A DNA stretch of 32,788 nucleotides from a phage, in the NCBI GenBank assembly GCA_029942545.1, contig GCA_029942545.1_4114.3. The stretch is one strand, 5' to 3'. Of the stretch, positions 9,318 to 25,742 are shown in pieces (position 1 is the stretch's first letter; each line of letters starts with the position of its first letter). The notes under the pieces are model-generated. The model did not search any database. It was not told the origin of the DNA and saw only the letters and a list, made by a program, of their open reading frames with translations. Position numbers and translations under genes: made by a program.

Positions 9318-9383
9318 AAATTCCTCCTTTATTCATTATACTATATTTAATACAAAAAGAAATGCCAGTACTTGAGTACTGGC
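9318..9383 (-). promoter_or_regulatory. terminator-promoter-RBS cassette
   Basis: GCCAGTACT-caag-AGTACTGGC hairpin plus T-run, TATAAT, AAGGAGG, ATG; near-identical to the other cassettes. Confidence 0.65.
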
Positions 9384-9389
9384 TTTATG

Positions 9390-10541: not shown

Positions 10542-10605
10542 AATTCCCTCCTTATTCATTATACTATATTTAATACAAATAAGAAAGCCAGTATCAAGTA
10601 CTGGC
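10542..10605 (-). promoter_or_regulatory. terminator-promoter-RBS cassette
   Basis: Same cassette; hairpin begins a few nt after the stop of 10613..11776. Confidence 0.65.
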
Positions 10606-10612
10606 ATTCTTT

Positions 10613-11776
10613 TTAAAATGGTGAATCTATTACAAATACTAAGCTATTAATACCACCATATGTGACATCAGCCCCAGTACTATATACAAAATTACCATCA
10701 GTTATATAAGTACGGTTATACCCACCTGACATTTGTGATTTACTATAATCAAAACCATCAGGTACGATTGCTTTGGTATATACTAATGCGTTAGTAGATG
10801 TACCAACACCTAACATACCAGCTTGTGTTGATTGGTTGTAGCCACAACAATATATACCATCTGTTGTAGCAATAACTTGGTTATAATATGAAGTATTATG
10901 GGCCATACTGAGTACATCACCTGGTGGCATTAGGGAAGCAGTTTGAACAGCAAATGCTCTTATATCAGTACTATTCACTCCATCTGCCTGTGCACCAAAT
11001 CTTTTCGCCCCACCATTGGCAATTATGGTTTTTCCATTTGGATCAGTACCAATAGCCATCGCCATTGAATTGTTATTATTTACATAGTACTCGATATTAA
11101 TTACACTCCTTAGACTCGTAGGAGCACTAGTGTATACTGTATATAGAGAAGTACCACTAGTGCTAATTGCATTGACACGGCCTGTATAGTATAACCAACC
11201 GTTAGCAGTAACATAACCATGCATTAGATTACTTGCAAACAATTTAAATGGTAATTGGTCTTCTTCAGTAGAGACTGTGCTCTGGACGAATTTAGTATTA
11301 ACGTTGTTAGTTGTTGTCCCATTACCTAACTGACCTTCTGCCCCTGCCCCAGTACTCCATATTGTTCGATCTGAAAGTAATACACTTGTAGTCTGATTAC
11401 TAACTGCCATATCTAATATTGGTAATGTTAATGTATTGAATGTTGGCATAGCAGAAGTCCACACTGATACGGCTGCCCCTGTCATACCAACAGTAGTTGA
11501 CGAACCACTGTACCATATTTCATTGTTGAATTTCTTAATAACCAAAGAAGTGGTACTTAACCAAAAATCTTCAACACCAGAAGTACTTAACGTCCATGTA
11601 GTAACGGTTTCTTTGTGACCTAAACCCAAAAGACCATTTGAATTCTGACCACGTACATATAAATCCCCACTGCTTGTTAAAACTGCAACGTTGTAGTTAT
11701 TGGCGAGTATTTTTTTAAATTTCGGTGGTGCTGGTGCTATATTCCCGTACTTAACCATTCTTGCAAAAGGTAACAT
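10613..11776 (-). CDS. RCC1-like beta-propeller repeat protein with MLPFARMVKYGNIAP leader
   Basis: ORF track; motif GAGAEGQLGNGTT. Confidence 0.85.
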   Translation of the reverse strand: MLPFARMVKYGNIAPAPPKFKKILANNYNVAVLTSSGDLYVRGQNSNGLLGLGHKETVTTWTLSTSGVEDFWLSTTSLVIKKFNNEIWYSGSSTTVGMTGAAVSVWTSAMPTFNTLTLPILDMAVSNQTTSVLLSDRTIWSTGAGAEGQLGNGTTTNNVNTKFVQSTVSTEEDQLPFKLFASNLMHGYVTANGWLYYTGRVNAISTSGTSLYTVYTSAPTSLRSVINIEYYVNNNNSMAMAIGTDPNGKTIIANGGAKRFGAQADGVNSTDIRAFAVQTASLMPPGDVLSMAHNTSYYNQVIATTDGIYCCGYNQSTQAGMLGVGTSTNALVYTKAIVPDGFDYSKSQMSGGYNRTYITDGNFVYSTGADVTYGGINSLVFVIDSPF

Positions 11777-11841
11777 AATTCCCTCCTTTATTCATTATAC
11801 TATATTTAATACAAAAAGAAATGCCAGTATCAAGTACTGGC
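11777..11841 (-). promoter_or_regulatory. terminator-promoter-RBS cassette
   Basis: Same cassette (hairpin GCCAGTACTTGATACTGGC, TATAATGAATAAAGGAGGG). Confidence 0.65.
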
Positions 11842-11847
11842 TTTAAT

Positions 11848-12996
11848 TCATTGTATAAATGACATATCAACTTCGGTATATCTTGTAGTGTACTGCCCAG
11901 AACTTCCACCCATTACTAGATTGGAAAAACCAGTATAAAATAACTTACCTTCATCTGTGAGAATCAAACTACCGATGTTATTCAGTACTAAACTGTAAGA
12001 ACTATTAAAATTTTCATAAGACTTGGTATAATAGAACTGATTTGTAAGATTACCAACACCCAATTGCCCACCAGTGTTAACCCCAGTTGCAAATATTGTA
12101 GTCCCAAATCTGAGAATATGTGAAGCCATATTACCAACACAACAGTATATATTCTGTACATCCGAATTCAATAAAGTTGGTGTTGTGTATTGCTTAAGTG
12201 TTGTGCCTGTGCCGAATTCATTACCATATGATAGTCCATATTGTGTACCACAAGCGTACAATTTATTATCATCTTTAATAAAAAATGTACTCTGATAACT
12301 TACATCGACATCTATAACATTAGTCTGTATTCTAACAACTCCAGTACTAGCAGTTTGATTGCCTGTCCCTAACTGATAGTAAGTGTTAATACCACAACCC
12401 CATAATGTATTATCTTCTTTTAGGTATATGTTACCAACAGCTTTTTTTACCGATGATATGGCTTCAATCTTAACAAAGGCGTTAAATGAATTTGTATTTG
12501 TGCCATTACCAAAAGATGATCTGGTTGATGTGCTGTTTGTTCCGCAGCAATATAAAGTACCATCAGTTGTTATCAAATTCACTTTAAGATCACTGTAACT
12601 ACTCATGTATTTTATATCAGAAACATTAATACCACTGGATGTTATCCATGAAGTACAATCTGTCCACGTGTTATAATATGCACCTGAACCAGAAAACGCA
12701 CTCGGACTTCCAGTTATAAACACTTTTCCAGTACCGTCTTCTTCATATAATTGACAACCACTACTGTTATTTTCCAAAAGGACTCTTTTAACATTAGTCG
12801 CACTAAGAATAAATTTACTCGACGAAACACCAGTTCCAGTACCCTGACTGACTGCCGCTGATGCATACAAATTTTTCGTGTATGTATCATGAAAATACAT
12901 AGCACTACCGCCGGAATATATTTTAAAACGTGTACTAGGATCAGGCGGGTTAGGTGCAATATTCCCGTACTTAATCATTCTAACAAAAGGTAACAT
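11848..12996 (-). CDS. RCC1-like beta-propeller repeat protein with MLPFVRMIKYGNIAP leader
   Basis: ORF track 11848..13014, start moved to MLPF ATG; motifs CGINTYYQLGTGNQT, GVNTGGQLGVGN; close paralog of 15137..16285. Confidence 0.85.
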   Translation of the reverse strand: MLPFVRMIKYGNIAPNPPDPSTRFKIYSGGSAMYFHDTYTKNLYASAAVSQGTGTGVSSSKFILSATNVKRVLLENNSSGCQLYEEDGTGKVFITGSPSAFSGSGAYYNTWTDCTSWITSSGINVSDIKYMSSYSDLKVNLITTDGTLYCCGTNSTSTRSSFGNGTNTNSFNAFVKIEAISSVKKAVGNIYLKEDNTLWGCGINTYYQLGTGNQTASTGVVRIQTNVIDVDVSYQSTFFIKDDNKLYACGTQYGLSYGNEFGTGTTLKQYTTPTLLNSDVQNIYCCVGNMASHILRFGTTIFATGVNTGGQLGVGNLTNQFYYTKSYENFNSSYSLVLNNIGSLILTDEGKLFYTGFSNLVMGGSSGQYTTRYTEVDMSFIQ

Positions 12997-13060
12997 ATTT
13001 CCCTCCTTATTCATTATACTATATTTAATACAAATAAGAATGCTAGTATCAAGTACTGGC
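12997..13060 (-). promoter_or_regulatory. terminator-promoter-RBS cassette
   Basis: Same cassette; hairpin variant GCCAGTACTTGATACTAGC. Confidence 0.6.
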
Positions 13061-13067
13061 CTATATT

Positions 13068-13805
13068 TTAGACTGAATTGTTAGGATAATATCTCCCACG
13101 TCCCCATATTATTCGCACAGCACCACCACCAGCAGCCGTATAAGAAAAATTATCCCATATACTACCACCACCACCATACATCTTACCAGCACCACCACTA
13201 CCAGCACCACCATTATATGAACCATCGTATCTACCGCCAATACCATTAGCACCTTGAACAATGATACCAGTACCACCACCCGTACCAATGAACGAGGTAT
13301 TATAGAATGCACCACCACCACCGCCGCCGCCAGCACCATTTTCACCAGTGATTGCATCTCCGTTACCACCTTTACCAGTGTAGCCACCAGCACCACCACC
13401 AATGACTGCACCACCACTTACACCAGCGTTGCCCCCATTACCACCACCATCATTAATAGCGTTAGCAGCTTTCCCACCTAGTCCACCAACCCTATATTCA
13501 CCAGTGAAGCTAACACATAGTTTTTCAGTTCCACGATATAAACCGTTTTCAACTGCTGTAGTAGTGTTGGGATGTGTAAGAGAAACACTTAAGTACTCAC
13601 CACTAGTAACCGGAATATTATTACGCCACGATAAGCCGCCGCCAGCACCACGTTGACCACCCGGCGAAATAACACATACTGATATTTCGGTAACGCCAGC
13701 AGGAACTGTAAATTGTGTTGTTCCTATTGTCGTGATTAATTGTTCACCATGTGGCTTATATTCAATTTCATTCCCGTACTTAATCATTCTTCCAAAAGGT
13801 AACAT
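13068..13805 (-). CDS. glycine-rich protein carrying the same MLPFGRMIKYGN leader
   Basis: ORF track; same N-terminal tag and upstream cassette as the RCC1 genes, but the body is FTVPAGVTEISVCVISPGG followed by long GGxGG low-complexity tracts; not RCC1. Confidence 0.8.
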   Translation of the reverse strand: MLPFGRMIKYGNEIEYKPHGEQLITTIGTTQFTVPAGVTEISVCVISPGGQRGAGGGLSWRNNIPVTSGEYLSVSLTHPNTTTAVENGLYRGTEKLCVSFTGEYRVGGLGGKAANAINDGGGNGGNAGVSGGAVIGGGAGGYTGKGGNGDAITGENGAGGGGGGGAFYNTSFIGTGGGTGIIVQGANGIGGRYDGSYNGGAGSGGAGKMYGGGGSIWDNFSYTAAGGGAVRIIWGRGRYYPNNSV

Positions 13806-13870
13806 AATTCCCTCCTTTATTCATTATAATATATTTAATACAAAAAGAAAAGCCAGTACTCAGTACTGGC
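13806..13870 (-). promoter_or_regulatory. terminator-promoter-RBS cassette
   Basis: Same cassette; perfect palindrome GCCAGTACT-g-AGTACTGGC. Confidence 0.65.
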
Positions 13871-13877
13871 TATTATA

Positions 13878-15065
13878 TTATAATTGTCGGGGTGTATCTA
13901 GTACATATCTAGTTGTACTAGGACCACCATCATCATAAGTTCCGGTTGAATATATATTTTTCATATCAGTTAGAAATGTACGATATGAACCTCTATATAT
14001 TTTTATTTTATCATACATAGAATATGTTATTTGTGTAGGCATTGGACATGCAGTAAACTTACCAACAGTTGCACTAGTACCAATACCCAATGAACCAGCA
14101 TAACTACTGGCATTTAAACCAGTTGCATATACACCAGTACTCGTAATTAGTATACTAGATTGTGGTGGGTATCCAGTATGAATTGAATACAAAGTACCGG
14201 GTGGTAACGTAGTACTGTTATTTCCTAAAACTCCATTAACAGAGCTAGATGTAGTGTTATTTCCCCATGCCCCATTATTAGCTAACCCACCGACAAGGAA
14301 CTGACGTGCTCCTGTATTTGGATTTTCAACTAAAGCACTTACTGCACCAGTTGAGCATCCTGTGTATTGTAACGTTTTTGTGTATGTTGTATTTGGTTGA
14401 TATAAAGTATATTCATTATATGAAGTCCATGTAGTCGCGGAACTTATACCGGATGTAACACCACCAATATATAAATTATTTTGTTTATCAAACAACAATA
14501 CACAGTTATTTGTTGACTGTATTTGTGCAATATCAACATTAGGTGTGACCGCTTTTACAAATGAACCATCGGTTATTTCATAAGTAGTTCCTGTACCATC
14601 TGCGAATTGTCTAGCACTGTTCCACCCTGTACTCCATATTGTATTATTATCCATTAACACAGTAAACCACGTAGTACCTCCATACATCTGTTTAATTGAA
14701 GTACTTGAACTTTGTGTGTACAAATTTTGAATATATTGGTTATAACTTAAAAACGTAGTAGTACTAGTTGATAAACCAATATGACTACCATATCCACAGT
14801 AATAATAATTTGAGTCATTGTCTTTTACTAATAAAGTTCCTTGTGTAAGCCAGCAATCGTTAACGTTTTCTCTAATTAATGTCCATGATTTTAATGCAGT
14901 GTTGTTTCCTCTACCGAATTTCCCAAAACTATTATTCCCACGTGCATATAGTTGACCATCCGTATACAGAACCACAACATCTAAATCAGTTGGGATTATT
15001 TTCTTAATTTGAAGTGGTACTGGGGCAATATTCCCATAATTCATCATTCTTGCAAAAGGTAACAT
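13878..15065 (-). CDS. RCC1-like beta-propeller repeat protein with MLPFARMMNYGNIAP leader
   Basis: ORF track; Gly/Ser/Thr/Asn-rich blades. Confidence 0.8.
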   Translation of the reverse strand: MLPFARMMNYGNIAPVPLQIKKIIPTDLDVVVLYTDGQLYARGNNSFGKFGRGNNTALKSWTLIRENVNDCWLTQGTLLVKDNDSNYYYCGYGSHIGLSTSTTTFLSYNQYIQNLYTQSSSTSIKQMYGGTTWFTVLMDNNTIWSTGWNSARQFADGTGTTYEITDGSFVKAVTPNVDIAQIQSTNNCVLLFDKQNNLYIGGVTSGISSATTWTSYNEYTLYQPNTTYTKTLQYTGCSTGAVSALVENPNTGARQFLVGGLANNGAWGNNTTSSSVNGVLGNNSTTLPPGTLYSIHTGYPPQSSILITSTGVYATGLNASSYAGSLGIGTSATVGKFTACPMPTQITYSMYDKIKIYRGSYRTFLTDMKNIYSTGTYDDGGPSTTRYVLDTPRQL

Positions 15066-15130
15066 AAATTCCTCCTTTATTCATTATACTATATTTAATA
15101 CAAATAAGAAAGCCAGTACAGAGTACTGGC
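15066..15130 (-). promoter_or_regulatory. terminator-promoter-RBS cassette
   Basis: Same cassette; hairpin GCCAGTACTCTGTACTGGC. Confidence 0.65.
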
Positions 15131-15136
15131 ATTAAA

Positions 15137-16285
15137 TCATTGTATAAATGACATATCAACTTCTGTATAACTAAGAATGTTTTGTCCAGCAATTCCCCCC
15201 ATTACTACCATAGCATACCCACAATAATATAATTGCTCAGTGTCCGTAAGTATAAGTGAACCAGATGGAGTGCGTACCAAATTACACGAACTATTAAACG
15301 AAGTATACGAAGGAGTATATGAGTACTGATTAATATTATTACCAACACCTAATTGACCAAATCCATTCGACCCAGATGCGTATAGAACTTCATCACCTTT
15401 AGCTATATGTGATGCCATGTTACTAACACACGTATATAGAGTATAAACTCCTGAACTCAATAATGTCGGAGTTTTGTATTGTATATCGGTAGATGAAGAA
15501 GTACCACCTGTGCCAAATTCGTTCCCGTATTGTGCACCGAACTGTTTACCACAAGCGTACAAATTATTATCCGATTTAATAAAAAATGTACTCTGATAAC
15601 TTACATCAAAATCTATAACATCTGAAGCAATCATCGTCACCCCAGTAATAGAAGTTTGATTACCTGTACCTAACTGATAGTAATAGTTAAAACCACAACC
15701 CCATAAAGTATTATCTTCTTTTAGGTATATGTTACCAACTGCCTTTTTAACCGAAGTTATAGTATCTACCCTTTTGAATGTGTTAAAAGAATTAATGTTT
15801 GTACCATCACCAAATGATGATAGGTTCGAGTTATTGTTAACTCCACAACAATACAACGTACCATCGTTTGTTATCAAATTCACCTTCATATCATTAAAAC
15901 TACTCATGTATTTTATATCAGAAACATTAATACCACCTGATGTTATCCACGTAGTACAGTCCGTCCACAAAGTTTTTGTATCAGTTACACCAGTGAATGC
16001 CTTCGTGTTACCAGTGATAAAAACTTTTCCAGTACCTTTCTCTTCATACATTTGACAACTACTACTGTTATCTTCCAATAGAACTCGTTTAACATTCTCT
16101 GCACAAAGAATAAATTTACTCGATGCTACACCTGTACCAGTACCCCAATTCGTCGCAGAAGATGCATACAACTTATTAGTATAAGTATCATGGAGATACA
16201 TAGAATCACTTGAATATATTTTAAAACGCCTATCCTTACCAGGGGCAATATTCCCATAATTCATCATTCTTGCAAAAGGTAACAT
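15137..16285 (-). CDS. RCC1-like beta-propeller repeat protein with MLPFARMMNYGNIAP leader
   Basis: ORF track; motif SGSNGFGQLGVGNN; long stretches near-identical to 11848..12996. Confidence 0.85.
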   Translation of the reverse strand: MLPFARMMNYGNIAPGKDRRFKIYSSDSMYLHDTYTNKLYASSATNWGTGTGVASSKFILCAENVKRVLLEDNSSSCQMYEEKGTGKVFITGNTKAFTGVTDTKTLWTDCTTWITSGGINVSDIKYMSSFNDMKVNLITNDGTLYCCGVNNNSNLSSFGDGTNINSFNTFKRVDTITSVKKAVGNIYLKEDNTLWGCGFNYYYQLGTGNQTSITGVTMIASDVIDFDVSYQSTFFIKSDNNLYACGKQFGAQYGNEFGTGGTSSSTDIQYKTPTLLSSGVYTLYTCVSNMASHIAKGDEVLYASGSNGFGQLGVGNNINQYSYTPSYTSFNSSCNLVRTPSGSLILTDTEQLYYCGYAMVVMGGIAGQNILSYTEVDMSFIQ

Positions 16286-16350
16286 ATTTCCCTCCTTTAT
16301 TCATTATACTATATTTAATACAAATAAGAAAGCCAGTACAGTGTACTGGC
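16286..16350 (-). promoter_or_regulatory. terminator-promoter-RBS cassette
   Basis: Same cassette; hairpin GCCAGTACACTGTACTGGC. Confidence 0.65.
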
Positions 16351-16356
16351 ATTATA

Positions 16357-17496
16357 TTATTTCCACGGTAGAAGTGAATCAGGAACCCTTGTTGGTACAG
16401 TAGTTGAAGACATTCCAGTAAGATTGGGTACACCACATGTGTATAAATTATTATATTCGTCAACTAACATCGTATAAGAATAGCTCTTACAAAAACTACT
16501 AAGATTACTACCTTCTAATGCAGTAAGATCCATTTCAGCGAATGATGTTATATACATATCAGTTGTACCAATACCACATTGACCATTTGAATTAAGGCCA
16601 CATGAAAATAACTTATTATTATTATTAATTATACAGGATGGTCCGGTAAGGTTTGTCCCAAGCTCACCCACCAACTCCACTTCTCCTTGGAATGATAAAT
16701 TTGGAATTAATGTACTCATTGGGGCTACTGACCTATTTCCTGTACCTGCTTGTCCATAGTCGTTAATAGATGCAACTTTAACATTACCATCATTAAGAAA
16801 TATATAAGAAGTTTCATTTGTATTGACTGCTTTAATTGCATTACTAATCGAAGTATCTTGTGTAAATGTGAGCAAGTTTTGTGTCGTCGTTCCTGATACA
16901 AACGTTCTACCTGCATACCAATATGAACCATCATTTAGTACTAATCCAGTACTATATATTGCACAACCAGCACTGATAACATTTTCTATTGTACTATAGG
17001 TGAATCGTGAAACGCTTGAAGTTGATCCATTCCCAAAAACACCACCAGTACCAGCACCACAGTAGAACCACTTTCCATTTTTTAAAAATACACGCATACA
17101 CGAAGATATCACAACACTATCAATATCATCTGCACTGACACCGAAATCAGTAAAGTTCTGTGTTATATCAACCCAAACGCCGTTAGTGTTTGAAGATAGT
17201 ATTGGAATAACAGTACGTCTACCAGTGTACCAAATAGTACCATCTTTCTTTATAGCAATTGTTCCTTGTACCCCACCCCAATATCGTGTAACATTTGAGT
17301 TGACAAGAGTCCATTCAGTTGAAGAGTCCAATGAACCATTACCACTTTGTCCATATGCTGAAGAACCAAACCAATATAGATTGCCATTTGTGTGTAAATA
17401 AAATTTGGCATCAGCAGAACATTGTAACCTGTTTTTAGGTAGAATCAGTTCAGGTGCGATATTCCCGTACTTAACCATTCTTGCAAAAGGTAACAT
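16357..17496 (-). CDS. RCC1-like beta-propeller repeat protein with MLPFARMVKYGNIAP leader
   Basis: ORF track; motifs SSAYGQSGNGS, GLNSNGQCGIGTT. Confidence 0.85.
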   Translation of the reverse strand: MLPFARMVKYGNIAPELILPKNRLQCSADAKFYLHTNGNLYWFGSSAYGQSGNGSLDSSTEWTLVNSNVTRYWGGVQGTIAIKKDGTIWYTGRRTVIPILSSNTNGVWVDITQNFTDFGVSADDIDSVVISSCMRVFLKNGKWFYCGAGTGGVFGNGSTSSVSRFTYSTIENVISAGCAIYSTGLVLNDGSYWYAGRTFVSGTTTQNLLTFTQDTSISNAIKAVNTNETSYIFLNDGNVKVASINDYGQAGTGNRSVAPMSTLIPNLSFQGEVELVGELGTNLTGPSCIINNNNKLFSCGLNSNGQCGIGTTDMYITSFAEMDLTALEGSNLSSFCKSYSYTMLVDEYNNLYTCGVPNLTGMSSTTVPTRVPDSLLPWK

Positions 17497-17561
17497 ATTT
17501 CCCTCCTTTATTCATTATACTATATTTAATACAAATAAGAAAGCCAGTACTCTGTACTGGC
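17497..17561 (-). promoter_or_regulatory. terminator-promoter-RBS cassette
   Basis: Same cassette; hairpin GCCAGTACAGAGTACTGGC. Confidence 0.65.
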
Positions 17562-17567
17562 ATTATG

Positions 17568-18677
17568 TTATTTTGGTAAATCAATTTTAGTAAAGACTGC
17601 AACATCCTCGATTGCACCTGGAATGGCGTAATACGATCCAGTACTATACACATCTCCATTTTTGGTTAATATCGATGTCAAACCATCACTAAAAAGAACA
17701 TCCCTAATCTCACTAACTTCAACGGGTAATTGTAAATTGGTAGCACTATATATAGCACCAGTTTGAGAATTGTTTAATCCCAAACCACGGTTCGCCCCAA
17801 CACCCTTCTGATATGTACTAGTAATTACCATTTGTGTAGCAGTATTTAAGGCAGGTGAATTCGTCATAAACAACGGAGAACTATTAGGCAAAGTACTTAC
17901 AGGAACGGCACGGAATGTAGTCGTGCCTGAACTAAGAAAGTTTGGAGTTTGACCACATACGAAATATGATGTACCATTATAGTAATTTAATGCATTACCA
18001 CCAATGGCTGCATCGATTACACCAGAACTACGCAATCCCCAAGTGTTAATTTGTGTTTGGTTCCCCGTACCATGCTGCCCACTACTATTCCATCCAGAAC
18101 TATATAGCTTATTATCTAATGTAAGATACATACTATCATTCGCATTGGTCATTACTTTACGAACGTTCGTAGCACATTGAGTTAATGTGTAAATTGATGA
18201 GGAACCAATACCCAAAGAACCACGATATCCATTATCTCCTGCACCATAGAGTACTGAATTAGTGCTAAGTACAAATATTAAACCATTTGTACATACAATA
18301 TTAGCAATTTCACTTACTGGTATAGCATTGGTAAACCAATTAGTTCTTTCAACTAATACAGTACTGTAAGAAGTAGTTGTAGAAGATGAGAACCAGTACG
18401 TTTGACCTGATGTCCATATCGTATTATCATTTTTAATAATAACAAGTGTACGATCACCCACGAAAAAATTAGAAACATCTGCACTTACTAATGTCCACGA
18501 AGACACCGTGTTGGTATTACCATTTCCAGATTCACCACCTTGATTTCTACCTATGTAATATAAATCATGTGAATCAGTCAATAAGAATTGGCCTTGGGTA
18601 GAAGCACCAACTTTAATTATTTTTTTAGGACCAGGGACAATATTTCCATACCTAATCATTCTTCCAAAAGGTAACAT
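17568..18677 (-). CDS. RCC1-like repeat protein with MLPFGRMIRYGNIVP leader
   Basis: ORF track 17568..18698, start moved to MLPF ATG; GGAGGG SD overlaps stop of upstream gene (coupled); motif GWNSSGQHGTGNQT. Confidence 0.8.
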   Translation of the reverse strand: MLPFGRMIRYGNIVPGPKKIIKVGASTQGQFLLTDSHDLYYIGRNQGGESGNGNTNTVSSWTLVSADVSNFFVGDRTLVIIKNDNTIWTSGQTYWFSSSTTTSYSTVLVERTNWFTNAIPVSEIANIVCTNGLIFVLSTNSVLYGAGDNGYRGSLGIGSSSIYTLTQCATNVRKVMTNANDSMYLTLDNKLYSSGWNSSGQHGTGNQTQINTWGLRSSGVIDAAIGGNALNYYNGTSYFVCGQTPNFLSSGTTTFRAVPVSTLPNSSPLFMTNSPALNTATQMVITSTYQKGVGANRGLGLNNSQTGAIYSATNLQLPVEVSEIRDVLFSDGLTSILTKNGDVYSTGSYYAIPGAIEDVAVFTKIDLPK

Positions 18678-18685
18678 ATTCCCTC

Positions 18686-19888
18686 CTATTGTTGCCATAA
18701 CTGCGTTGGCATTAATGTTAGTGTAGTAATACTATAAGTACCATTAGGTAATCTACCACCATTTCCATTCCAGCCACCACATGCATATAATTTATAATCT
18801 TTAGTAATTATTATGGTTCTGCTCCAATCTTTAGATGCCATAAGAACATTGTCATAACCACCACTTATTGCACTAAGATTAAAAATATTCCAAGTTCTAA
18901 CTAATGTATTAGTTCCATTACCTTCTTGACCATATGAGTTAGCACCACTACTTCTAACATATGGTGCGTATTGTGCCATAGGTGCACCAATTGATGCATT
19001 TCCCATATTACTTGGACAAATAAAAGTACTGTACTTACTTACATCAACCGTGACCGATGTGTTCCTAATTGGTGTTAGCTGATTTACCGATGTAGTCGTA
19101 CCATTACCAGCTTGTCCAGTACTGTTAACCCCGCTATAATATACAGACCCACCAGTAGTAAACCACCAAGTAACATCGTATGTAGTACTAATATGTTCTA
19201 CATTACTAATCACGAATTTGTTCAAATATACAACAGAACTACCACCACATCCACTTTCACCAAAGTTATCCTTACCACAAAACCATGCATCTTTATTTGA
19301 TTTGATATAGTGCGTTCCTTGTAATGAACATGCCATATGTGTAACTTCACCCATATTAGTCATAACTGTGAGTGTAGGGATGGAATTTTTATTACCAGAG
19401 CCACATTCACCATTAGTATTTCTTCCACACGCAATTACTCTACCATCGGTTAATAATATTCTAGTACTTTCACCTATATATACACTCTTGATCATATTAG
19501 CCATAACACCTATTTTATTAAATGCAACAGTAACATCAGTCCATGTTGTCAAATAACCATTAACAGGTGTTGCATCTCCATAATCAGAAAATGCAGCCAC
19601 AGACCCAGTGTAGTATATTTTATTATCCAAATCAATCATCAATGAACCTTGAACACCAAGCCAAAAGGCTGCACAGTTCCTTGCAAGTACTGTAAATGAC
19701 GAAACTGCTGCTGAATTCCCAAGACCAAATTGGTAAAAGTTATTACTACCATAACCATATAAAGTATTAGTTGGGTTATGGAGATACATACAGTTTGTAT
19801 AATGTTGTTGTAAAACATCTGAGAACTCTACAGGTTCTGGACCTGGTGCAATATTTGCGTACTTAACCATTCTTCCAAAAGGTAACAT
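18686..19888 (-). CDS. RCC1-like repeat protein with MLPFGRMVKYANIAP leader (first gene of array)
   Basis: ORF track 18686..19906, start moved to MLPF ATG; motifs CGRNTNGECGSGN, SGVNSTGQAGNGTT. Confidence 0.8.
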   Translation of the reverse strand: MLPFGRMVKYANIAPGPEPVEFSDVLQQHYTNCMYLHNPTNTLYGYGSNNFYQFGLGNSAAVSSFTVLARNCAAFWLGVQGSLMIDLDNKIYYTGSVAAFSDYGDATPVNGYLTTWTDVTVAFNKIGVMANMIKSVYIGESTRILLTDGRVIACGRNTNGECGSGNKNSIPTLTVMTNMGEVTHMACSLQGTHYIKSNKDAWFCGKDNFGESGCGGSSVVYLNKFVISNVEHISTTYDVTWWFTTGGSVYYSGVNSTGQAGNGTTTSVNQLTPIRNTSVTVDVSKYSTFICPSNMGNASIGAPMAQYAPYVRSSGANSYGQEGNGTNTLVRTWNIFNLSAISGGYDNVLMASKDWSRTIIITKDYKLYACGGWNGNGGRLPNGTYSITTLTLMPTQLWQQ

Positions 19889-19936
19889 ATTTCCCTCCTT
19901 ATTCATTATATCATATTTACCCCATAAAGAAAACCC
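19889..19936 (-). promoter_or_regulatory. promoter/RBS of first array gene (variant, no hairpin)
   Basis: Minus strand GATATAATGAATAAGGAGGGAAAT then ATG; shares a divergent intergenic region with the plus-strand promoter at 19937. Confidence 0.5.
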
Positions 19937-19990: not shown

Positions 19991-20218
19991 ATGACAAATA
20001 CTCTTAAGTACTACCTCAATACTCTAAATGAACTAGAGTACGGGGAATTTCTCTCGGATAGTTCGTGGCTAATTGAGCTAAAAAATTATAATAGTCCAGG
20101 ATGCACCCTTATGATGAACAATGCAATTGATACCCTCATTGTGAGTATTTTACACAGCAACATCTGCGGGGATAGCAATAAACAATTATCAAAAATCTTA
20201 GTACTGCTATCTATATGA
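19991..20218 (+). CDS. small protein, ~60-aa paralog family member
   Basis: ORF track; AAGGAG SD; family features (N-terminal YY, central C-rich motif, hydrophobic C-terminus). Confidence 0.7.
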   Translation: MTNTLKYYLNTLNELEYGEFLSDSSWLIELKNYNSPGCTLMMNNAIDTLIVSILHSNICGDSNKQLSKILVLLSI

Positions 20219-20418
20219 ACATTGAACAGTACTACATCGATGCACTACCAACAAAAGGTCTACGAGAAAGCCTACTGTATACACAAAATACTTTTATACA
20301 CTACAAACGTTGTCCTAAACTCCTGAACTCGTACAGGAGTAATATCATAAGAAATGCTTTACAAGGGGCAGAAAGTATGCAATACTATTATATCCTTGCC
20401 CTTTTAATCGAGTACTAA
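20215..20418 (+). CDS. small protein, paralog family member
   Basis: ORF track; 4-nt overlap with upstream gene; motifs MNIEQYYID, ends LALLIEY. Confidence 0.7.
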   Translation: MNIEQYYIDALPTKGLRESLLYTQNTFIHYKRCPKLLNSYRSNIIRNALQGAESMQYYYILALLIEY

Positions 20419-20419
20419 T

Positions 20420-20629
20420 ATGAATACTGAACATAAAGAATTCTACACCAAATACCTTAGCAACGAAGAACAATTGTTTCTAAGGAGTGTATCACCTGTA
20501 AGTACCAATACTCACTTCGGTAGAGATTGCTTTAATAATTGTATACGTAGTACTCTAGAAGCAATCGAATGCAATAACAAAAATATTATGTACTCAGGTT
20601 TAATAGGACTAATCTACTTCTATGAATAA
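20420..20629 (+). CDS. small protein, paralog family member
   Basis: ORF track; starts MNTEHKEFYTKYL; central FNNCIRS. Confidence 0.7.
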   Translation: MNTEHKEFYTKYLSNEEQLFLRSVSPVSTNTHFGRDCFNNCIRSTLEAIECNNKNIMYSGLIGLIYFYE

Positions 20630-20816
20630 TCATAAAGATTTCTATGGTAGTAAACTACACAAGCAAGACCAGCTATCATTCTCTTTAGCACCACCTATGA
20701 GAAAGGATAATCTATATTACAATTACGATTTCAGGATGGCGACACGTTATGCAATAGAACATCAGTTCCCTGAAACTAAGTACCGCTCTATCCTGAACCT
20801 CATCTTTAAGTTCTAA
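20622..20816 (+). CDS. small protein, paralog family member
   Basis: ORF track; starts MNNHKDFY; 8-nt overlap with upstream gene. Confidence 0.65.
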   Translation: MNNHKDFYGSKLHKQDQLSFSLAPPMRKDNLYYNYDFRMATRYAIEHQFPETKYRSILNLIFKF

Positions 20817-20826
20817 AAGGTGCTAT

Positions 20827-21036
20827 ATGAAAACTACAAACATTCATCAGTACTACATAGATATTCTCCCTAAAGATGTACAGTTCATACTTAAACAAGA
20901 ATTCAGTACTTTAAAAAAACTAAAAAGAACCGCACCTTCAGCAATCATCCAGCACCAAAAAAATGTCGTGCGTAATATACTACAAGGTACACCAGGGACC
21001 GAGTACTTTAATATAGTAAGGCTAATTACATTATAA
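20827..21036 (+). CDS. small protein, paralog family member
   Basis: ORF track; starts MKTTNIHQYYIDILP; resembles 20215..20418. Confidence 0.7.
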   Translation: MKTTNIHQYYIDILPKDVQFILKQEFSTLKKLKRTAPSAIIQHQKNVVRNILQGTPGTEYFNIVRLITL

Positions 21037-21221
21037 TGAATCATATAAGCTACTACTACCAACAACTATCCGACAGAGACAAGTACAGTCACAACTCCCA
21101 TGTGTGGTACTACAAACGCGGCAGTATAAGAGACAAACAACATTACTTCTGTATTTCTATTAAAGAAGCACTGACAACTAAGTACACGTACCGAGCAGTA
21201 ATTAAACTTATTGAAATGTAA
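21036..21221 (+). CDS. small protein, paralog family member
   Basis: ORF track; ends KYTYRAVIKLIEM, matching the next gene's KYTYREVMKLIAI. Confidence 0.7.
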   Translation: MNHISYYYQQLSDRDKYSHNSHVWYYKRGSIRDKQHYFCISIKEALTTKYTYRAVIKLIEM

Positions 21222-21229
21222 GGAAGAAA

Positions 21230-21412
21230 ATGAACATAGAATTCTATTTAACTAAACTACAACACGCCGAAAGATTCAACTTCAATAAGTTCAATATTTT
21301 CTACAATTGCGGGAACAAAAAAGATAAACACACCTTCCTATATGTCGTCACAAGAGATGCACAAAACGAAAAGTACACATACAGAGAAGTAATGAAACTA
21401 ATCGCTATTTAA
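21230..21412 (+). CDS. small protein, paralog family member
   Basis: ORF track; close paralog of 21036..21221. Confidence 0.7.
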   Translation: MNIEFYLTKLQHAERFNFNKFNIFYNCGNKKDKHTFLYVVTRDAQNEKYTYREVMKLIAI

Positions 21413-21420
21413 GGAATACT

Positions 21421-21600
21421 ATGCAACAATTCTATAGAGAACGTATAACCATAAAAGACCGTTTCATGTACGACACCTTCGTGAAGTACTACAAACTAGG
21501 AACAAAAAGTACTAAAAATATTAATCTCAATAGCTGCATTTATGCTGTACTAACACAAGATAATCCCTACAGGGAAATCCTCGCCCTGGCATCTATATAA
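21421..21600 (+). CDS. small protein (59 aa), probable paralog family member
   Basis: Not in ORF track (below 60 aa); hand-called ATG about 21421 after AAGGA SD, stop TAA about 21598-21600; fills the only gap in the array; starts MQQFYRERI. Confidence 0.5.
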   Translation: MQQFYRERITIKDRFMYDTFVKYYKLGTKSTKNINLNSCIYAVLTQDNPYREILALASI

Positions 21601-21610
21601 AGGAAACCAA

Positions 21611-22282
21611 ATGAAACTTAATGCACACAGCAAACAATACCTTAAGCACTTTAAGTACCTCAATAGTATTCAGGCAGAATCAGTTACATCTGCATATACG
21701 TATCACCCGAATGTACTAAAGAAACGAAATAAAAAGGAAAAATCCAGTACAAATGGAGTTAACGTATCAAAGAACCTTGAATTGTACATGAAGAAAAATA
21801 ATATAGCTGTTCATTATATGAATATCTATAATACTGATTTAAAAGTATTGAGTACTAATACGAGCACAAAGGTACTAAAGAACGCATCCTTCATCATCAA
21901 TATGCAGTTGGATAATACCCCGTGCACTTTAATGCTATACTTCGGGAATACATACTTCTTCGGGAATTGTAACACCTCCCACGATGTCAATACAGCACAA
22001 TTCCAAATGGGTGGCATATACTCTACTGATGCAGAAAAAGTACACGAGAATATGCACTTCTGGCAAGCACAACGTACAGAAGAAACTGATACAGTACTAC
22101 AATTCCTCAAAGAACTAGAACACAAAGAACTACAGGAAGAAGAACTATTCATGTACAGTACTGTAATCGATAATCCAGTACTCTATAAAAACGCGTACAA
22201 TCTGACAAAACATGTACAGGAACTTATCAGTACTAATAAGAAAATGCATCACCTCATTACGTATATTACAAACTATGTATAA
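21611..22282 (+). CDS. hypothetical protein (223 aa) embedded in the small-ORF array
   Basis: ORF track; AAGGAAACC SD-like; no family motifs. Confidence 0.7.
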   Translation: MKLNAHSKQYLKHFKYLNSIQAESVTSAYTYHPNVLKKRNKKEKSSTNGVNVSKNLELYMKKNNIAVHYMNIYNTDLKVLSTNTSTKVLKNASFIINMQLDNTPCTLMLYFGNTYFFGNCNTSHDVNTAQFQMGGIYSTDAEKVHENMHFWQAQRTEETDTVLQFLKELEHKELQEEELFMYSTVIDNPVLYKNAYNLTKHVQELISTNKKMHHLITYITNYV

Positions 22283-22457
22283 AGAATACTACAGGGAACA
22301 TCTCCCAATGCATCTCCAGCACCATATACCAACAGAACCAATAGGAATAAAAGATCACGCAAAGATAATGTTTCAACAATGTACTAAGTACACGCTCATA
22401 TACGATGATAATCCATATATGCTGTACTACGTAGTAATGTTAACATTCAGGTACTAA
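22275..22457 (+). CDS. small protein, paralog family member
   Basis: ORF track 22212..22457; start moved to internal ATG (MYKEYYREHLP) that matches family N-termini and overlaps the upstream stop. Confidence 0.7.
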   Translation: MYKEYYREHLPMHLQHHIPTEPIGIKDHAKIMFQQCTKYTLIYDDNPYMLYYVVMLTFRY

Positions 22458-22458
22458 C

Positions 22459-22644
22459 ATGTATAAAGAATACTACATAGAGAAACTCCCAATGTATCTC
22501 CAACACCTTGTACCAACAGAACCATTGGGTATAGAAAAAAACTACGAAAAAGACTACTTCATTCAGTGCACTAAATCCTCGATATATATTGAAGACTATA
22601 ATCGAGTACTGTATCACATCCTTTTACTAATATATAGGTACTAA
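22459..22644 (+). CDS. small protein, paralog family member
   Basis: ORF track; MYKEYYIEKLP ... LLLIYRY; 1-nt intergenic gap. Confidence 0.75.
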   Translation: MYKEYYIEKLPMYLQHLVPTEPLGIEKNYEKDYFIQCTKSSIYIEDYNRVLYHILLLIYRY

Positions 22645-22645
22645 T

Positions 22646-22828
22646 ATGCACAAAGAATACTACACACAATTTCTCCCCAGCATTTTTGAACACTACGCCA
22701 GATACAAAGTCCCCCTGGATAACGATTTGGCAGTACTGGGATTCAATAACTGCATAGAACGAAGTATAGAAAATAGTAGTAGTTATGACCAGCTATATAA
22801 CACTATCCTACTTATATTCAGGTACTAA
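22646..22828 (+). CDS. small protein, paralog family member
   Basis: ORF track; MHKEYYTQFLP ... ILLIFRY. Confidence 0.75.
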   Translation: MHKEYYTQFLPSIFEHYARYKVPLDNDLAVLGFNNCIERSIENSSSYDQLYNTILLIFRY

Positions 22829-22829
22829 C

Positions 22830-23018
22830 ATGCATAAAGAATACTACACAAAATATTTCCCAATGTACCTCAGAACTAATCTATTAGATAAACCTCGCGG
22901 TATCAATGCACAAAATGATAAAGTGTATTTTACTATGTGCACTAAAGCATGTATACTAGATTTTGACAGCTATCATCGAGTACTGTATCATACCCTGTAC
23001 CTAGCTTTCGTATTCTAA
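22830..23018 (+). CDS. small protein, paralog family member
   Basis: ORF track 22785..23018; start moved to ATG 22830 (MHKEYYTKYFP) matching family. Confidence 0.7.
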   Translation: MHKEYYTKYFPMYLRTNLLDKPRGINAQNDKVYFTMCTKACILDFDSYHRVLYHTLYLAFVF

Positions 23019-23027
23019 GAGAACAAT

Positions 23028-23213
23028 ATGCATAAAGAATTCTACTTAAGCCATCTGGATCTAAACTCCCAAATGCTTATACCACTAATCCCAATAGATA
23101 TCAAGGATAAGAAAAATACCGAACAATTCATTTACCATACACAGTGTGCGATCACCCCAAATTACATTCCATATGAATTGTACTACATTCTCGCCCTAAT
23201 ATATAGGTACTAA
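23028..23213 (+). CDS. small protein, paralog family member
   Basis: ORF track; MHKEFYLSHL ... LALIYRY. Confidence 0.75.
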   Translation: MHKEFYLSHLDLNSQMLIPLIPIDIKDKKNTEQFIYHTQCAITPNYIPYELYYILALIYRY

Positions 23214-23214
23214 T

Positions 23215-23400
23215 ATGCATAGAGAATACTACACACAATTTGTTAAAGGGAACTACAAACATGCCGTACCCAGAACCCCTTTAAATTCTCATGACCCAAG
23301 TACTATATTCTTGTTTAATGACGCAATACGTACAGTACTCAATACTAAAGATGAAGATGTGCAGTACGTATTCTTACTATTACTTATATACAGACACTAA
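23215..23400 (+). CDS. small protein, paralog family member
   Basis: ORF track; MHREYYTQFV ... LLLIYRH. Confidence 0.75.
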   Translation: MHREYYTQFVKGNYKHAVPRTPLNSHDPSTIFLFNDAIRTVLNTKDEDVQYVFLLLLIYRH

Positions 23401-23405
23401 CTAAT

Positions 23406-23588
23406 ATGAATAAAGAACATAAAGAATTCTATATAAGAAAACTAACATTCGTCCCCGTAAGAATATATAAAGAATGCGACCCAAGATTATACCTATGGCA
23501 CTTCAATGAGTGCATAAAAGATTCTATATACCCTAAGAACTATAAAGAACAATTGTGCTCAGTACTAACACTAGTACTATCATATTAA
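23406..23588 (+). CDS. small protein, paralog family member
   Basis: ORF track; MNKEHKEFYIRKL; central FNECIKDSIY. Confidence 0.7.
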   Translation: MNKEHKEFYIRKLTFVPVRIYKECDPRLYLWHFNECIKDSIYPKNYKEQLCSVLTLVLSY

Positions 23589-23603
23589 TTAATAGAGAAT
23601 ACT

Positions 23604-23795
23604 ATGTATAAAAACTTCTATATAAGTAAACTAAAAGAAAATGAACAAGTATGGATTAGATCTATAATTCCACTGGCATTTAATAGATATGCATTTAACA
23701 GATGTACCGAGATTGCTATAGACCCTTATAATATTAAAGAGAATGTACAGTATAATCAGTACTACTATATCTTAATGCTTATATATAGGAAGTAA
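23604..23795 (+). CDS. small protein, paralog family member (last of array)
   Basis: ORF track; MYKNFYISKL ... ILMLIYRK. Confidence 0.7.
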   Translation: MYKNFYISKLKENEQVWIRSIIPLAFNRYAFNRCTEIAIDPYNIKENVQYNQYYYILMLIYRK

Positions 23796-23909
23796 TTAAA
23801 CACAAGTAGACAGGGGAAGCTCCTAGTGAACAACCTTTATGTACAGGCGAATTGTTAAAATTCAGCCTGGACAAATGCGATCACTAGGATTCTCCCCAGG
23901 CTAAACCCC

Positions 23910-24000
23910 GTAATCATAGGTAGTCATAAGTAATCATATATAAACATTTAAGTAATCATTTATAATCACTGTAGTGATCAGTAGTGATCAGTAGTGAGTA
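23910..24000. repeat. direct repeats: GTAATCA-type heptamers and three tandem 10-bp units
   Basis: GTAATCAT occurs at least 3 times with a related TAATCAC, followed by AGTAGTGATC x3 in tandem (about 23970-24000). Confidence 0.6.
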
Positions 24001-24129
24001 CTAGAGTACAGGAATGTTCACGTTTAATCAAGAACGTAGCAGTACTGATATGTCACTAAGTAGGCAGAGGAAGTCTGCCGTACTTTTTAGTTTCCAAGCT
24101 CCTTTTCCATTTTTCAAATTACATCAAAT

Positions 24130-24164
24130 GTAATCAAAAGTAATCACGCAATGATTAGTACTGA
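24130..24164. repeat. GTAATCA repeats including an inverted pair
   Basis: GTAATCAAAAGTAATCACGCAATGATTAG: two direct copies plus inverted TAATCA/TGATTA around CGCAA. Confidence 0.55.
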
Positions 24165-24423
24165 ATTATTACTTTCACCTTAATTACAATTACCCTTTTA
24201 CCCGTCGGGGTAAAATTCCATTACCCCTTGAGGCTCCAGCAAAAAGTTGGTTAGTACTCCATCCTAAATCTCGATCCTAAAAATTTTGGAGTACCTATGA
24301 AATAAAAGTTGGATCTTCGAAAGTTGAAATTTACGTTGGGACGTTTATGATTTGTGGGATATAATGATGTTTGTAGACGGGTAGTTCTCAAGAATATCAG
24401 TACTGAATAATGAAAGAAAGTTA

Positions 24424-24451
24424 TTGACATTATGATTCAGTACTGTATAAT
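24424..24451 (+). promoter_or_regulatory. strong sigma70-like promoter in ORF-free region
   Basis: TTGACA (24424-24429), 16 nt containing CAGTACTG, TATAAT (24446-24451); no ORF of meaningful length downstream. Confidence 0.55.
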
Positions 24452-24457
24452 GTTCTA

Positions 24458-24656
24458 CATAGAGAGATGAGTTGCTGCCAACAATTCATTTACTCTACCT
24501 CCTGTCGTGAGACAGTACAGAAAAGATAGTTCCTCCTGTGGTGGTACATCTTTTTGAACCTCATATGAAAATCGTAATAACAGTACTGATATTAACAGAA
24601 TGGTGTCAGTACTGATTTTAATCTAAAGCATTATGCCACCAGCTTGTGCTGGTGGA
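24458..24656 (+). ncRNA. candidate small non-coding RNA (about 200 nt)
   Basis: Downstream of promoter 24424-24451; longest ORF about 20 aa; two CCTCCTGT(C/G)GTG copies (anti-SD-like CCUCCU); ends at 8-bp hairpin CCACCAGC-ttgt-GCTGGTGG (24636-24655) without a clear U-tract. Confidence 0.25.
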
Positions 24657-24796
24657 TTCCCTCTAACAGTATTCAGTACTACATGATAGTCTTCATCCTC
24701 CTAGGGTAACATAGTGAGGGCTATGATGGCAGTACTGAATACTCCTTTCACAAGATAGATCTATGGTATAGTACTGACGGATTTTGGGCGTAGTTA

Positions 24797-24968
24797 CCCT
24801 GGATGGATTTTGGACGTAGATATGTCTAGCCCTCCAGAAGTCTGGAAGTAAAGATGGCTATCCATCTAGACGGCTAGACGGCTAGATTTCTGGATGGCTG
24901 GATGGCTAGACGTTTGGACGGCTAAACGGCTAGATGGTTACACGTCTGGAAGTATAGACGGCTAAATC
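24797..24968. repeat. iteron-like array of short direct repeats
   Basis: Repeated 7-11 bp words: ACGGCTA(G/A)A x5, TGGATGG x3, TTGGACG x2, GTCTGGAAGTA x2, mostly in one orientation at roughly 9-11 bp spacing. Confidence 0.6.
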
Positions 24969-25130
24969 AAAATTTTATTTTGTTTTTTCCAATAGTTCCC
25001 CTACCGCGTGGGGATAGTTTCCCCGCAGTATCTGGAGTTAGATTTTTCTGAATCTGGAATCATTATCTTATAAACTGGGGGCAATGTCAACGGCCTGGAC
25101 GGATATTTTTAAAAATTTTTTCAGTACTGA

Positions 25131-25182
25131 ATTTTGGGCGTAACTATGCACCCGGTGGGCTTGAGTCTTTCTCGACTTGATG
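25131..25182 (+). repeat. ~50-nt repeated element, copy A
   Basis: ATTTTGGGCGTAACTATGCACCCGGTGGGCTTGAGTCTTTCTCGACTTGATG; shares ATTTTGGGCGTAA, GCACCC and CTTTCTCG..T.ATG blocks with copies at 25347 and 28955. Confidence 0.5.
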
Positions 25183-25245
25183 AAAATATTATAGCAGTAC
25201 TGAAAAAATAAAGCAATACCCTAAACGCAAAAAGTTTTAATTAAT

Positions 25246-25274
25246 TTGCTTGCCATCCTGGGGCGTACTATGAT
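25246..25274 (+). promoter_or_regulatory. possible promoter (TTGCTT -35-like, TATGAT -10)
   Basis: TTGCTT, 17 nt, TATGAT, upstream of repeated element copy B; weak match. Confidence 0.25.
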
Positions 25275-25346
25275 ACTATTATTCAGTACTGAGAAAGTGC
25301 TATGACCTGCTAAGGTGCGGGAGTGTATCCTTTTTAAATTATATGA

Positions 25347-25399
25347 ATTTTGGGCGTAATTCCGCACCCCCCAGGGGTATCCGCTTTCTCGCGTCTATG
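25347..25399 (+). repeat. ~50-nt repeated element, copy B
   Basis: ATTTTGGGCGTAATTCCGCACCCCCCAGGGGTATCCGCTTTCTCGCGTCTATG. Confidence 0.5.
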
Positions 25400-25657
25400 T
25401 AGTAATTATACGCTTTTTCGGTGCTGAGTCAATAGCTAAAAACAAAATAATTGAAAATAATTTAACGCGTTTAAACGGCCCGTAAAGCCCTGGTTAGCTG
25501 GTGGCGGTGCAAATGTATAGCTTAGGTGTATTAATGCGTTAGAAAGCGGCTGAGGCCGTTTTATGGGGTGTATAGTAGTGATTTGGTTGATTCAGTACTG
25601 AAAGATAGTTCCCCTATATAGAAAGAAAACTATTTTAAAAGTATTTGTAGAAAGTAC

Positions 25658-25720
25658 TTGCAAAGTATTGGGAAAGGTGTAGAATGTTTTACATCGAGAC
25701 GGGGGATACGCTCCCGACTC
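25658..25720 (+). promoter_or_regulatory. early-type promoter plus downstream stem-loop (PeSL-like)
   Basis: AGTACTTGCAA, 16 nt, TAGAAT, GTTTTACATC, then GGGGGATACGCTCCC hairpin; gene 25743 follows. Confidence 0.55.
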
Positions 25721-25742
25721 ACTTTTAAAAGAGATTAAAACG

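Follow-up and report, generated by a model that had tools for sequence, protein, structure and literature searches.

Genomic setting of the array

The window, as we call the whole 32,788-nucleotide stretch of phage DNA analysed here, is 92–99% identical to Asteriusvirus genomes (121Q/PBECO4-like jumbo coliphages, ~350 kb) and contains a short array of tandem repeats within a 1.95-kb gap without credible ORFs (23796–25742). The features around the array are collected in Table 1. On the minus strand, twelve tandem paralogous ORFs of ~245–406 aa fill positions 5674–19906, and on the plus strand tandem ORFs of ~60 aa (phrog_11711 family) extend over 22459–23795, just ahead of the junction with the terminal repeat. 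No ORF of 30 aa or more covers the array. When ten flanking ORFs were compared with Pfam and PHROGs, the matches were to families of unknown function only; ribbon-helix-helix, Rep, Par and terminase families were all absent. A tRNA scan and an Rfam search at gathering thresholds over the whole window returned no tRNA and no family.

Table 1. Coordinates of the array and of the features around it, in window positions
Feature	Position	Strand	Remarks
Left boundary of the ~21-kb direct terminal repeat (DTR)	24059..24080	+	Physical left virion-DNA end, AGTAGGCAGAGGAAGTCTGCC...
Sigma-70-type promoter, TTGACA-16-TATAAT	24424..24451	+	Predicted; perfect, 12/12 consensus match
ATTTTGG(G/A)CGTA, two copies	24781..24819	+	At the 5' edge of the array
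Array of contiguous 8-bp met-box-like units, n = 20	24812..24971	.	Consensus AGAYGKCT; last unit degenerate
T-rich tract and conserved 3' flank TTCCAATAGTTCCCCTACCGCG	24972..25008	+	Behind the array in all three jumbo-phage genera
Sigma-70-like promoter, TTGACA-17-GATAAT	25062..25090	-	Predicted; 11/12 match; points leftward at the array

Base 1 of fEgEco12 and base 1 of vB_Ec-M-J both align to window position 24059, so that the window contains the point where the unique right arm meets the DTR. OQ718158 has a DTR annotation; the DTR annotated in vB_Ec-M-J is 21,525 bp long, those of fEgEco12 were determined as 20,993 bp by PhageTerm and confirmed by restriction digests (PMC13070987), and the DTR of Sharanji has 20,668 bp (PMC11895373). 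The array occupies the stretch 753–912 bp inside the left boundary. In records with determined ends the array region lies at ~640–1050 and occurs twice per record, and the right-hand DTR copy of fEgEco12 likewise holds the array. Because it lies inside the DTR, the array is present in two copies in every virion.

The terminal sequence AGTAGGCAGAGGAAGTCTGCC comprises a small GC-rich hairpin (24063–24079) followed by a T-run, and ...CCTGAAGTC... is common to the starts of XbC2 and pEa_SNUABM_12. Other short words are repeated on both sides of the physical end, 60–150 bp before and 55–90 bp after 24059: GTAATCA(T)A about five times and GTAGTGATCA 2.7 times at 23910–23997, then TCAAATGTAA / AAAGTAATCA at 24114–24146, with one extra AAAAGTAATCA in vB_Ec-M-J. 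The cumulative GC-skew minimum at ~24000 corresponds to the physical genome end and not to the change of gene orientation near 20000; the plus-strand block of small ORFs (20000–23800) has a negative GC skew and a strongly positive AT skew. No DnaA boxes were found in 23796–25742.

The array lies between two convergent predicted sigma-70-type promoters, 24424–24451 (+) and 25090–25062 (-), and overlaps no promoter in any lineage inspected by eye. The rightward promoter, 366–393 bp from the genome end, points at the array and is conserved in the divergent EJP2. The leftward promoter-like site belongs, together with one CAGTACTG, to a block of ~125 bp (25025–25150) that is identical between the window and EJP2; the DNA beside this block has diverged to ~72% identity. 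The palindrome CAGTACTG itself has 33 sites in the window against 0.55 expected (e.g. 24438, 28607, 32651 and 19949), 10 of them within 24040–25600, and it is also found inside ORFs. In at least four places it stands directly ahead of TATAAT or a similar -10 hexamer and behind TTGACA or TTGCAA. This suggests that the CAGTACTG sites form a phage-specific promoter or operator class. XaC1, XbC2 and GAP32 also have AGTACT-rich leaders.

The motif ATTTTGG(G/A)CGTA occurs four times in the window (24781, 24807, 25131 and 25347), is confined to the terminal leader and abuts the array with two of its copies; it also stands ahead of the arrays of GAP32, pEa_SNUABM_12 and EJP2. The DNA after the copies at 25131 and 25347 (25131–25190 and 25347–25400) resembles small structured RNAs starting with GGGCGUA, and neither ARAGORN nor Rfam gave a match for these two candidates. 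On the other side, the 3' flank of the array recurs behind the arrays of pEa_SNUABM_12, XbC2, GAP32 and fHe-Yen9-04.

Architecture of the array

A previous sequence-only reading of this DNA had described several short words, repeated in the same orientation at roughly one helical turn. The words are present where they had been placed (TAGACGGCTA-type five times, CTGGATGG three times, TTGGACG and GTCTGGAAGTA twice each) and they share one orientation, but they are not independent: each is the same 8-bp unit read in another phase of one register. Laid out in blocks of eight, positions 24809–24971 form one tandem array of this unit in a single strict register and without spacers. Autocorrelation over the core (24841–24968) reaches 0.59–0.65 at lags of 8, 16, 24, 32 and 40, compared with 0.30–0.34 at lags of 4, 12, 20 and so on and ~0.15–0.22 at lags that are not multiples of 4. 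Tandem Repeats Finder reports a period of 8 and 12.4 copies of the consensus CTAGACGG, and the copies of the longest repeated word are spaced by 8, 40, 8 and 32 bp. By both methods the period is thus 8 bp, and the spacing of one helical turn (~10.5 bp) had to be abandoned.

Within the array, 14 consecutive units in phase agree with AGACGTCT in at least 5 of their 8 positions. This is far more than chance gives: by the same criterion, shuffling the array 2000 times produced runs of no more than 3, and the longest run in 150 kb of E. coli DNA was 4. There is no second such array within the window.

Correspondence to the operators of MetJ

The array unit AGAYGKCT differs at one position from AGACGTCT, the met box, tandem 8-bp repeats of which are bound by the methionine repressor MetJ (PMC4239095, PMC3413123). 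A weight matrix built from the 20 phage units alone was used to scan 150 kb of E. coli K-12 on both strands with two, three or four tandem units. At every setting the top four non-overlapping matches were the control regions of metJ/metB, metA, metF and metR/metE; these are the MetJ-controlled regions contained in the scanned chunks, and they rank 1–4 among ~300,000 positions. The identity to four tandem copies, (AGACGTCT)x4, is 25, 24 and 23 of 32 for the array and 24, 22, 22 and 21 for the E. coli operators, on a background of 8.0 ± 2.3 in which nothing else exceeds 19. Unit by unit, the mean identity to AGACGTCT is 5.65/8 in the array versus 5.56/8 in 16 E. coli operator boxes.

The published met-box information matrix (Augustus and Spicer, PMC3228920, Table 3; site threshold 12.58 bits) was applied as well. 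With it, 16 of the 20 units reach the single-box cut-off, 19 have positive scores, and the total over all units is 110 bits. The best four-box windows in the array score 32.5 and 31.9 bits; the four-box scores of the E. coli operators are 31.2 (metB/J), 27.1 (metA), 24.9 (metF) and 19.2 bits (metE/R), the background is -49 ± 15 bits, and the second-best place in the window reaches 4.5. The 8 × 4 base-frequency matrix of the window array correlates with that of the 16 E. coli operator boxes at r = 0.92, and at r ≤ 0.11 in shifted registers; for eight phage arrays the corresponding values are r = 0.82–0.94. The units also score on the reverse strand, which is expected because the met box is palindromic and would not be expected of ordinary iterons.

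In sequence, period and degeneracy, the array units are those of MetJ operators: the 8-bp unit resembles AGACGTCT, the boxes abut in register, and they are interchangeable with genuine operators. The setting is different, as the array lies in phage non-coding DNA and not at the promoter of a methionine or SAM gene. No met genes are near it, and it is ~90 and ~360 bp from the closest promoter-like sites. In half of the units G replaces T at box position 6. Among natural boxes this G ranks second in frequency at that position, but it can be expected to weaken one half-site and counts against an explanation by MetJ.

Conservation among jumbo phages

The array keeps its position in three jumbo-phage genera. 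The array is found 648–912 bp from the PhageTerm-defined left ends in Asteriusvirus and in XbC2 (Mimasvirus), the record start of the latter being its PhageTerm-defined terminus (PMC11273794). The arrays of Eneladusvirus show the same offset, there measured from the start of the records and not from a determined terminus.

The number of units is 20 in the window, JP4, vB_Ec-M-J and 121Q, 21 in fEgEco12, 14 in SHEFM2K, where the array has a clean 48-bp loss, and ~25 in EJP2. Where clean Asteriusvirus records differ in array length, they do so by whole units (+8 bp, -48 bp, ~+40 bp) and keep the register; one unverified Asteriusvirus record has an array with a 1-bp shift. In EJP2 the flanks are only ~72% identical, and the boxes still average 5.5/8. 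In Eneladusvirus (phages of Erwinia, Serratia and Yersinia) and Mimasvirus (GAP32, CBB, XbC2), blastn detects the array alone; these arrays have 14–19 good boxes and lie 648–816 bp from the record start, that of XbC2 comprising 16 boxes at 648–775. The first 35 kb of XaC1, a Xanthomonas jumbo relative whose DTR was defined by PhageTerm, contain no array. XbC2, with an array, and XaC1, with none, were reported on the same Xanthomonas vesicatoria strains.

Arrays in unrelated phages

Similar arrays are found in T5-like Demerecviridae, with 30 units in Aeromonas phage AhSzq-1, 18 in Vibrio phage Pontus (and arrays in relatives), and nine near-perfect boxes in Providencia phage PR1, at 9620–9691 inside the annotated 10,461-bp DTR. 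The T7-like phage PGT2 carries one at 38–117 of an exact 260-bp DTR. In all three lineages, the arrays thus lie inside the DTR, ~0.1–0.9 kb from one of its boundaries. The geometry of T5-like and jumbo phages is alike up to map orientation, one copy of the array being ~0.8 kb from the physical end and the other ~0.8 kb from the junction between DTR and unique DNA.

Comparison of the T5-like regions (PR1 9500–9720, Pontus 2840–3290, AhSzq-1 2820–3240 and T5 9500–9760) places the arrays of PR1, Pontus and AhSzq-1 in the slot where T5 has DRE1/DRE2. The PR1 array has a DnaA-box pair upstream of it and DRD-type repeats downstream. The elements of Pontus follow the same order, and AhSzq-1 has DnaA boxes and the array with no recognisable DRD-like repeat. 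The DRD-like repeats (GTGCAAATCCGACA) lie behind the array in Pontus and, as one copy, in PR1. The sequence CCCTC(C)TGCGC behind T5-like arrays resembles CCCCTNCCGCG behind the arrays of jumbo phages. In T5, the shear point of first-step transfer has been placed at ~9618. The first 12 kb of T5, whose host does have MetJ, are without an array, and the array is therefore not obligatory for a T5-type lifestyle.

A pattern scan of IMG/VR recovered further heterogeneous arrays alongside some perfect microsatellite-like runs. One contig has ~40 tandem AGATGTCC/T boxes (7241–7560), and in several others perfect (GGATGGCT)n or (GGAAGGCT)n runs stand at the ends of the contigs. Neither 72,556 plasmids nor 5,426 complete E. 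coli genomes yielded a similar array.

Candidate binding protein

MetJ acts as ribbon-helix-helix dimers and has SAM (S-adenosylmethionine) as its co-repressor. One dimer binds per box, at least two adjacent boxes are needed, and assembly is cooperative (PMC3413123, PMC3228920). The hosts of array-bearing phages are Escherichia, Salmonella, Klebsiella, Erwinia, Pectobacterium, Cronobacter, Serratia, Yersinia, Providencia, Vibrio and Aeromonas. In the orders to which they belong (Enterobacterales, Vibrionales and Aeromonadales) MetJ is universal and its motif conserved, whereas pseudomonads and Xanthomonadales are without MetJ (PMC4239095). E. coli has metJ. A tblastn search with E. coli MetJ against 50,697 phage records revealed no phage-encoded homologue, the matches being confined to three records, namely two bacterial contigs and one 1.4-kb fragment.

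Host MetJ would be the parsimonious binder of the array because phage records hold no MetJ homologue, the flanking ORFs are uninformative and the hosts come from MetJ-bearing orders. Host range alone is weak evidence here, as it comes from only about three independent phage lineages. XbC2 is an exception: it carries a good array, yet it was reported on Xanthomonas vesicatoria, which belongs to an order without MetJ. Either its array is left over from a recent enterobacterial host, or it speaks against an assignment to MetJ.

Possible roles of the array

On balance we lean towards the array being an oversized operator of host MetJ, of about 20 boxes, which would act in cis at the genome end. 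SAM-loaded MetJ would coat the ~160 bp of the array as a filament of roughly 20 dimers and, with lower certainty, this filament might serve as a protein block in cis or as an architectural mark at the genome end. The role that we favour would be in staged DNA entry, or in the handling of the terminal repeat during concatemer processing, in either case dependent on the SAM status of the host. A role in cis is favoured because the arrays of three lineages keep to the DTR at 0.1–0.9 kb from one boundary, because T5-like arrays are embedded in the counterpart of the injection-stop region, because the array lies between two convergent predicted sigma-70-type promoters, both conserved in EJP2, and because no promoter is overlapped in the lineages inspected by eye.

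The main rival has the same protein titrated in trans. The arrays, of which each genome has two and replication makes more, would act as a sponge for MetJ and derepress the methionine/SAM regulon (metK, metE, metF, metNIQ and others), feeding phage protein synthesis and SAM-dependent DNA methyltransferases, of which Asteriusviruses encode several (PMC11895373). The boxes are at least as good as those of chromosomal operators, the array is 4–5 times longer than the four-box stretches that were scored, placement in the DTR doubles the copy number, and the lack of promoter overlap would fit a decoy. We nevertheless consider such a sponge unlikely: a decoy could sit anywhere, yet the arrays are found ~0.1–0.9 kb from a DTR boundary in three lineages, and those of T5-like phages hold one specific slot of the injection-stop region. 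Moreover, phages of the T5 and T7 types are known for destroying or silencing the DNA of their hosts at an early stage, so that derepression of host genes would be of little use to them.

It is more improbable still that the units are iterons for a phage-encoded protein, such as an initiator, a partition/centromere-binding protein or a small terminase, whose word is merely similar to a met box. ParG-type ribbon-helix-helix partition proteins do coat arrays with an 8-bp period (PMC3413123), the genome end is close, a short T-rich tract lies behind the array, most flanking genes are of unknown function, and the cumulative GC skew has its minimum near 24000. However, a protein with exactly the specificity and spacing of MetJ would have to exist in each of three unrelated phage families, and neither a MetJ homologue in phage records nor a ribbon-helix-helix, Rep, Par or terminase family in the ten flanking ORFs offers such a protein. 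DnaA boxes and plasmid arrays (among 72,556 plasmids) are likewise lacking, the period is not helical, and the switch in GC skew coincides with the physical end itself. Thus, of the iteron reading put forward earlier, what has held is that short words of a protein-binding type lie in one orientation in non-coding DNA, close to the physical end as a landmark of the genome, whereas the word itself is a host MetJ box. An origin bound by an initiator is not supported, given the 8-bp period and the lack of a flanking initiator gene and of DnaA boxes, nor is a partition site, given the lack of a flanking partition gene and of similar arrays in plasmids.

Several known element types were compared with the locus and do not fit it. 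Replication-origin iterons have helix-phased repeats (~11 or 22 bp), an initiator gene, DnaA boxes and an AT-rich unwinding element, and the locus offers only a T-rich tract of ~30 bp. A partition centromere (parS, parC, parH) is not indicated, as there is no par-type or ribbon-helix-helix neighbour and no plasmid or E. coli match. A T5-type injection-stop region is not recognisable in the window, which has no DnaA boxes there. TrpR sites can be tandem, with CTAG at 8-bp spacing, but the half-site ACTAG is unmatched, and a CsrA-type RNA sponge of GGA motifs was discarded since GGA is not the conserved part of the unit.

With respect to terminase sites of the pac or cos type, the array lies 753 bp from the cut site, and direct recognition by terminase is disfavoured because the same word occurs in phages with unrelated packaging machinery. 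As sites for recognition by terminase, the GTAATCA/GTGATCA repeats flanking the cut site are more plausible than the met-box array. A role in packaging is possible only indirectly, with MetJ as an accessory factor.

A neutral minisatellite, in which replication slippage would have multiplied an 8-bp seed within terminal DNA that is dispensable, or an element acting at the RNA level is very improbable: the unit number differs among isolates (14, 20, 21, ~25), some IMG/VR matches are perfect microsatellite-like runs and transcripts of either strand fold better than shuffles (z-scores -4.3 and -3.2), but heterogeneous units keep their met-box identity across genera whose flanks do not align, indels in clean Asteriusvirus records keep the register, the predicted hairpin is lost with the 48-bp deletion in SHEFM2K, and searches for Rfam families and tRNAs gave no match. 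Excess folding energy is to be expected as a by-product of tandem quasi-palindromic boxes; these explain the negative z-scores, the fold is not kept by unit indels, and a reading as RNA structure was therefore rejected.

Implications of a proposed MetJ filament at genome ends

Returning to an operator for host MetJ that acts in cis, a broader and more doubtful proposal, drawn from sequence comparison, is that at least three unrelated virulent families (Rak2-like jumbo myoviruses, T5-like Demerecviridae and one T7-like member of the Autographiviridae) may have independently built arrays of 9–30 boxes in their DTRs and may use a SAM-dependent MetJ filament in the biology of their genome ends. 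If this is true, the filament could be the long-sought protein component of the T5-like injection stop or pause, and staged entry would be implied for jumbo phages; another possibility is that it acts as a roadblock and so sets how the terminal repeat is processed. In both cases the delivery of the genome, or its maturation, would be tied to the methionine/SAM state of the host.

The question of what acts at the injection-stop region of T5-like phages has been open since the 1970s–80s, and MetJ would offer a testable candidate for the actor in the T5-like phages of Providencia, Vibrio and Aeromonas. For the 121Q-like and Rak2-like jumbo phages, the array would give a first functional handle on the 1.7-kb non-coding leader. 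If MetJ coats the arrays, they would represent a widespread case of lytic phages recruiting a host metabolic repressor for their chromosome ends. This suggests that infection may read or rewire the SAM status of the cell, and mutations in metJ or the SAM pathway could alter susceptibility to therapeutic jumbo phages. In assemblies, the arrays also serve as marks of true genome termini.

A full-text literature search found no paper on met boxes in phage DNA; its coverage was incomplete, and the arrays may have been noticed earlier. A comparative study of the MetJ regulon mentions phage only for prophage-borne genes (PMC3228920), and a detailed published comparison of T5-like injection-stop regions makes no mention of MetJ or of these arrays.

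Comparison with known systems

The two-step injection of DNA is a feature of T5, and the likeness of the jumbo phages to it is one of sequence layout: a non-coding repeat cluster in a long DTR, several hundred bp from the boundary of the repeat. T5 differs in that it is without met boxes, and the jumbo-phage region is without DnaA boxes and DRD repeats. For repeat region 3 of T5, or injection stop signal (iss), an action through host DNA-binding proteins and DnaA boxes has been proposed (10.1101/866236).

Host-factor sites and short repeats are also known beside the termini of other phages that process concatemers. The IHF site in lambda cosB is a host-factor site within a DNA-end signal, and the SRL/SRR short repeat arrays adjoin the terminal repeat of T7; we know of no protein that binds SRL/SRR. 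Both are likewise beside the termini, but the proteins and words differ from those of the array described here.

Plasmid arrays for ribbon-helix-helix proteins, such as ParG and omega (the heptads of pSM19035), also consist of many short, regular boxes that are cooperatively coated by dimers. They differ in box sequence and in having an adjacent par operon, and the binder of the phage array, unlike theirs, would be encoded by the host. The ParG boxes of TP228, for instance, consist of ACTC and a 4-bp spacer with an 8-bp period (PMC3413123).

The closest relatives of the array are the MetJ operators of E. coli (metA, metBL/metJ, metF, metE/metR and others), which share the 8-bp unit, the contiguous head-to-tail layout, the degeneracy pattern R-R-A-Y-G-K-C-T and comparable scores per box. 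Chromosomal MetJ operators have 2–5 boxes. The array has 20 and those of other phages 9–30, and no in-phase run of more than 4 exists in the 150 kb of E. coli K-12 scanned. Chromosomal operators overlap promoters, whereas the phage array does not, is not upstream of a methionine gene and sits in a terminal repeat; a G at box position 6 is frequent in it, unlike in the E. coli operators. The DNA word and the logic of its binding are thus those known from MetJ operators, and what is new is the length of the array, its context in the terminal repeats of lytic phages and the use that this implies.
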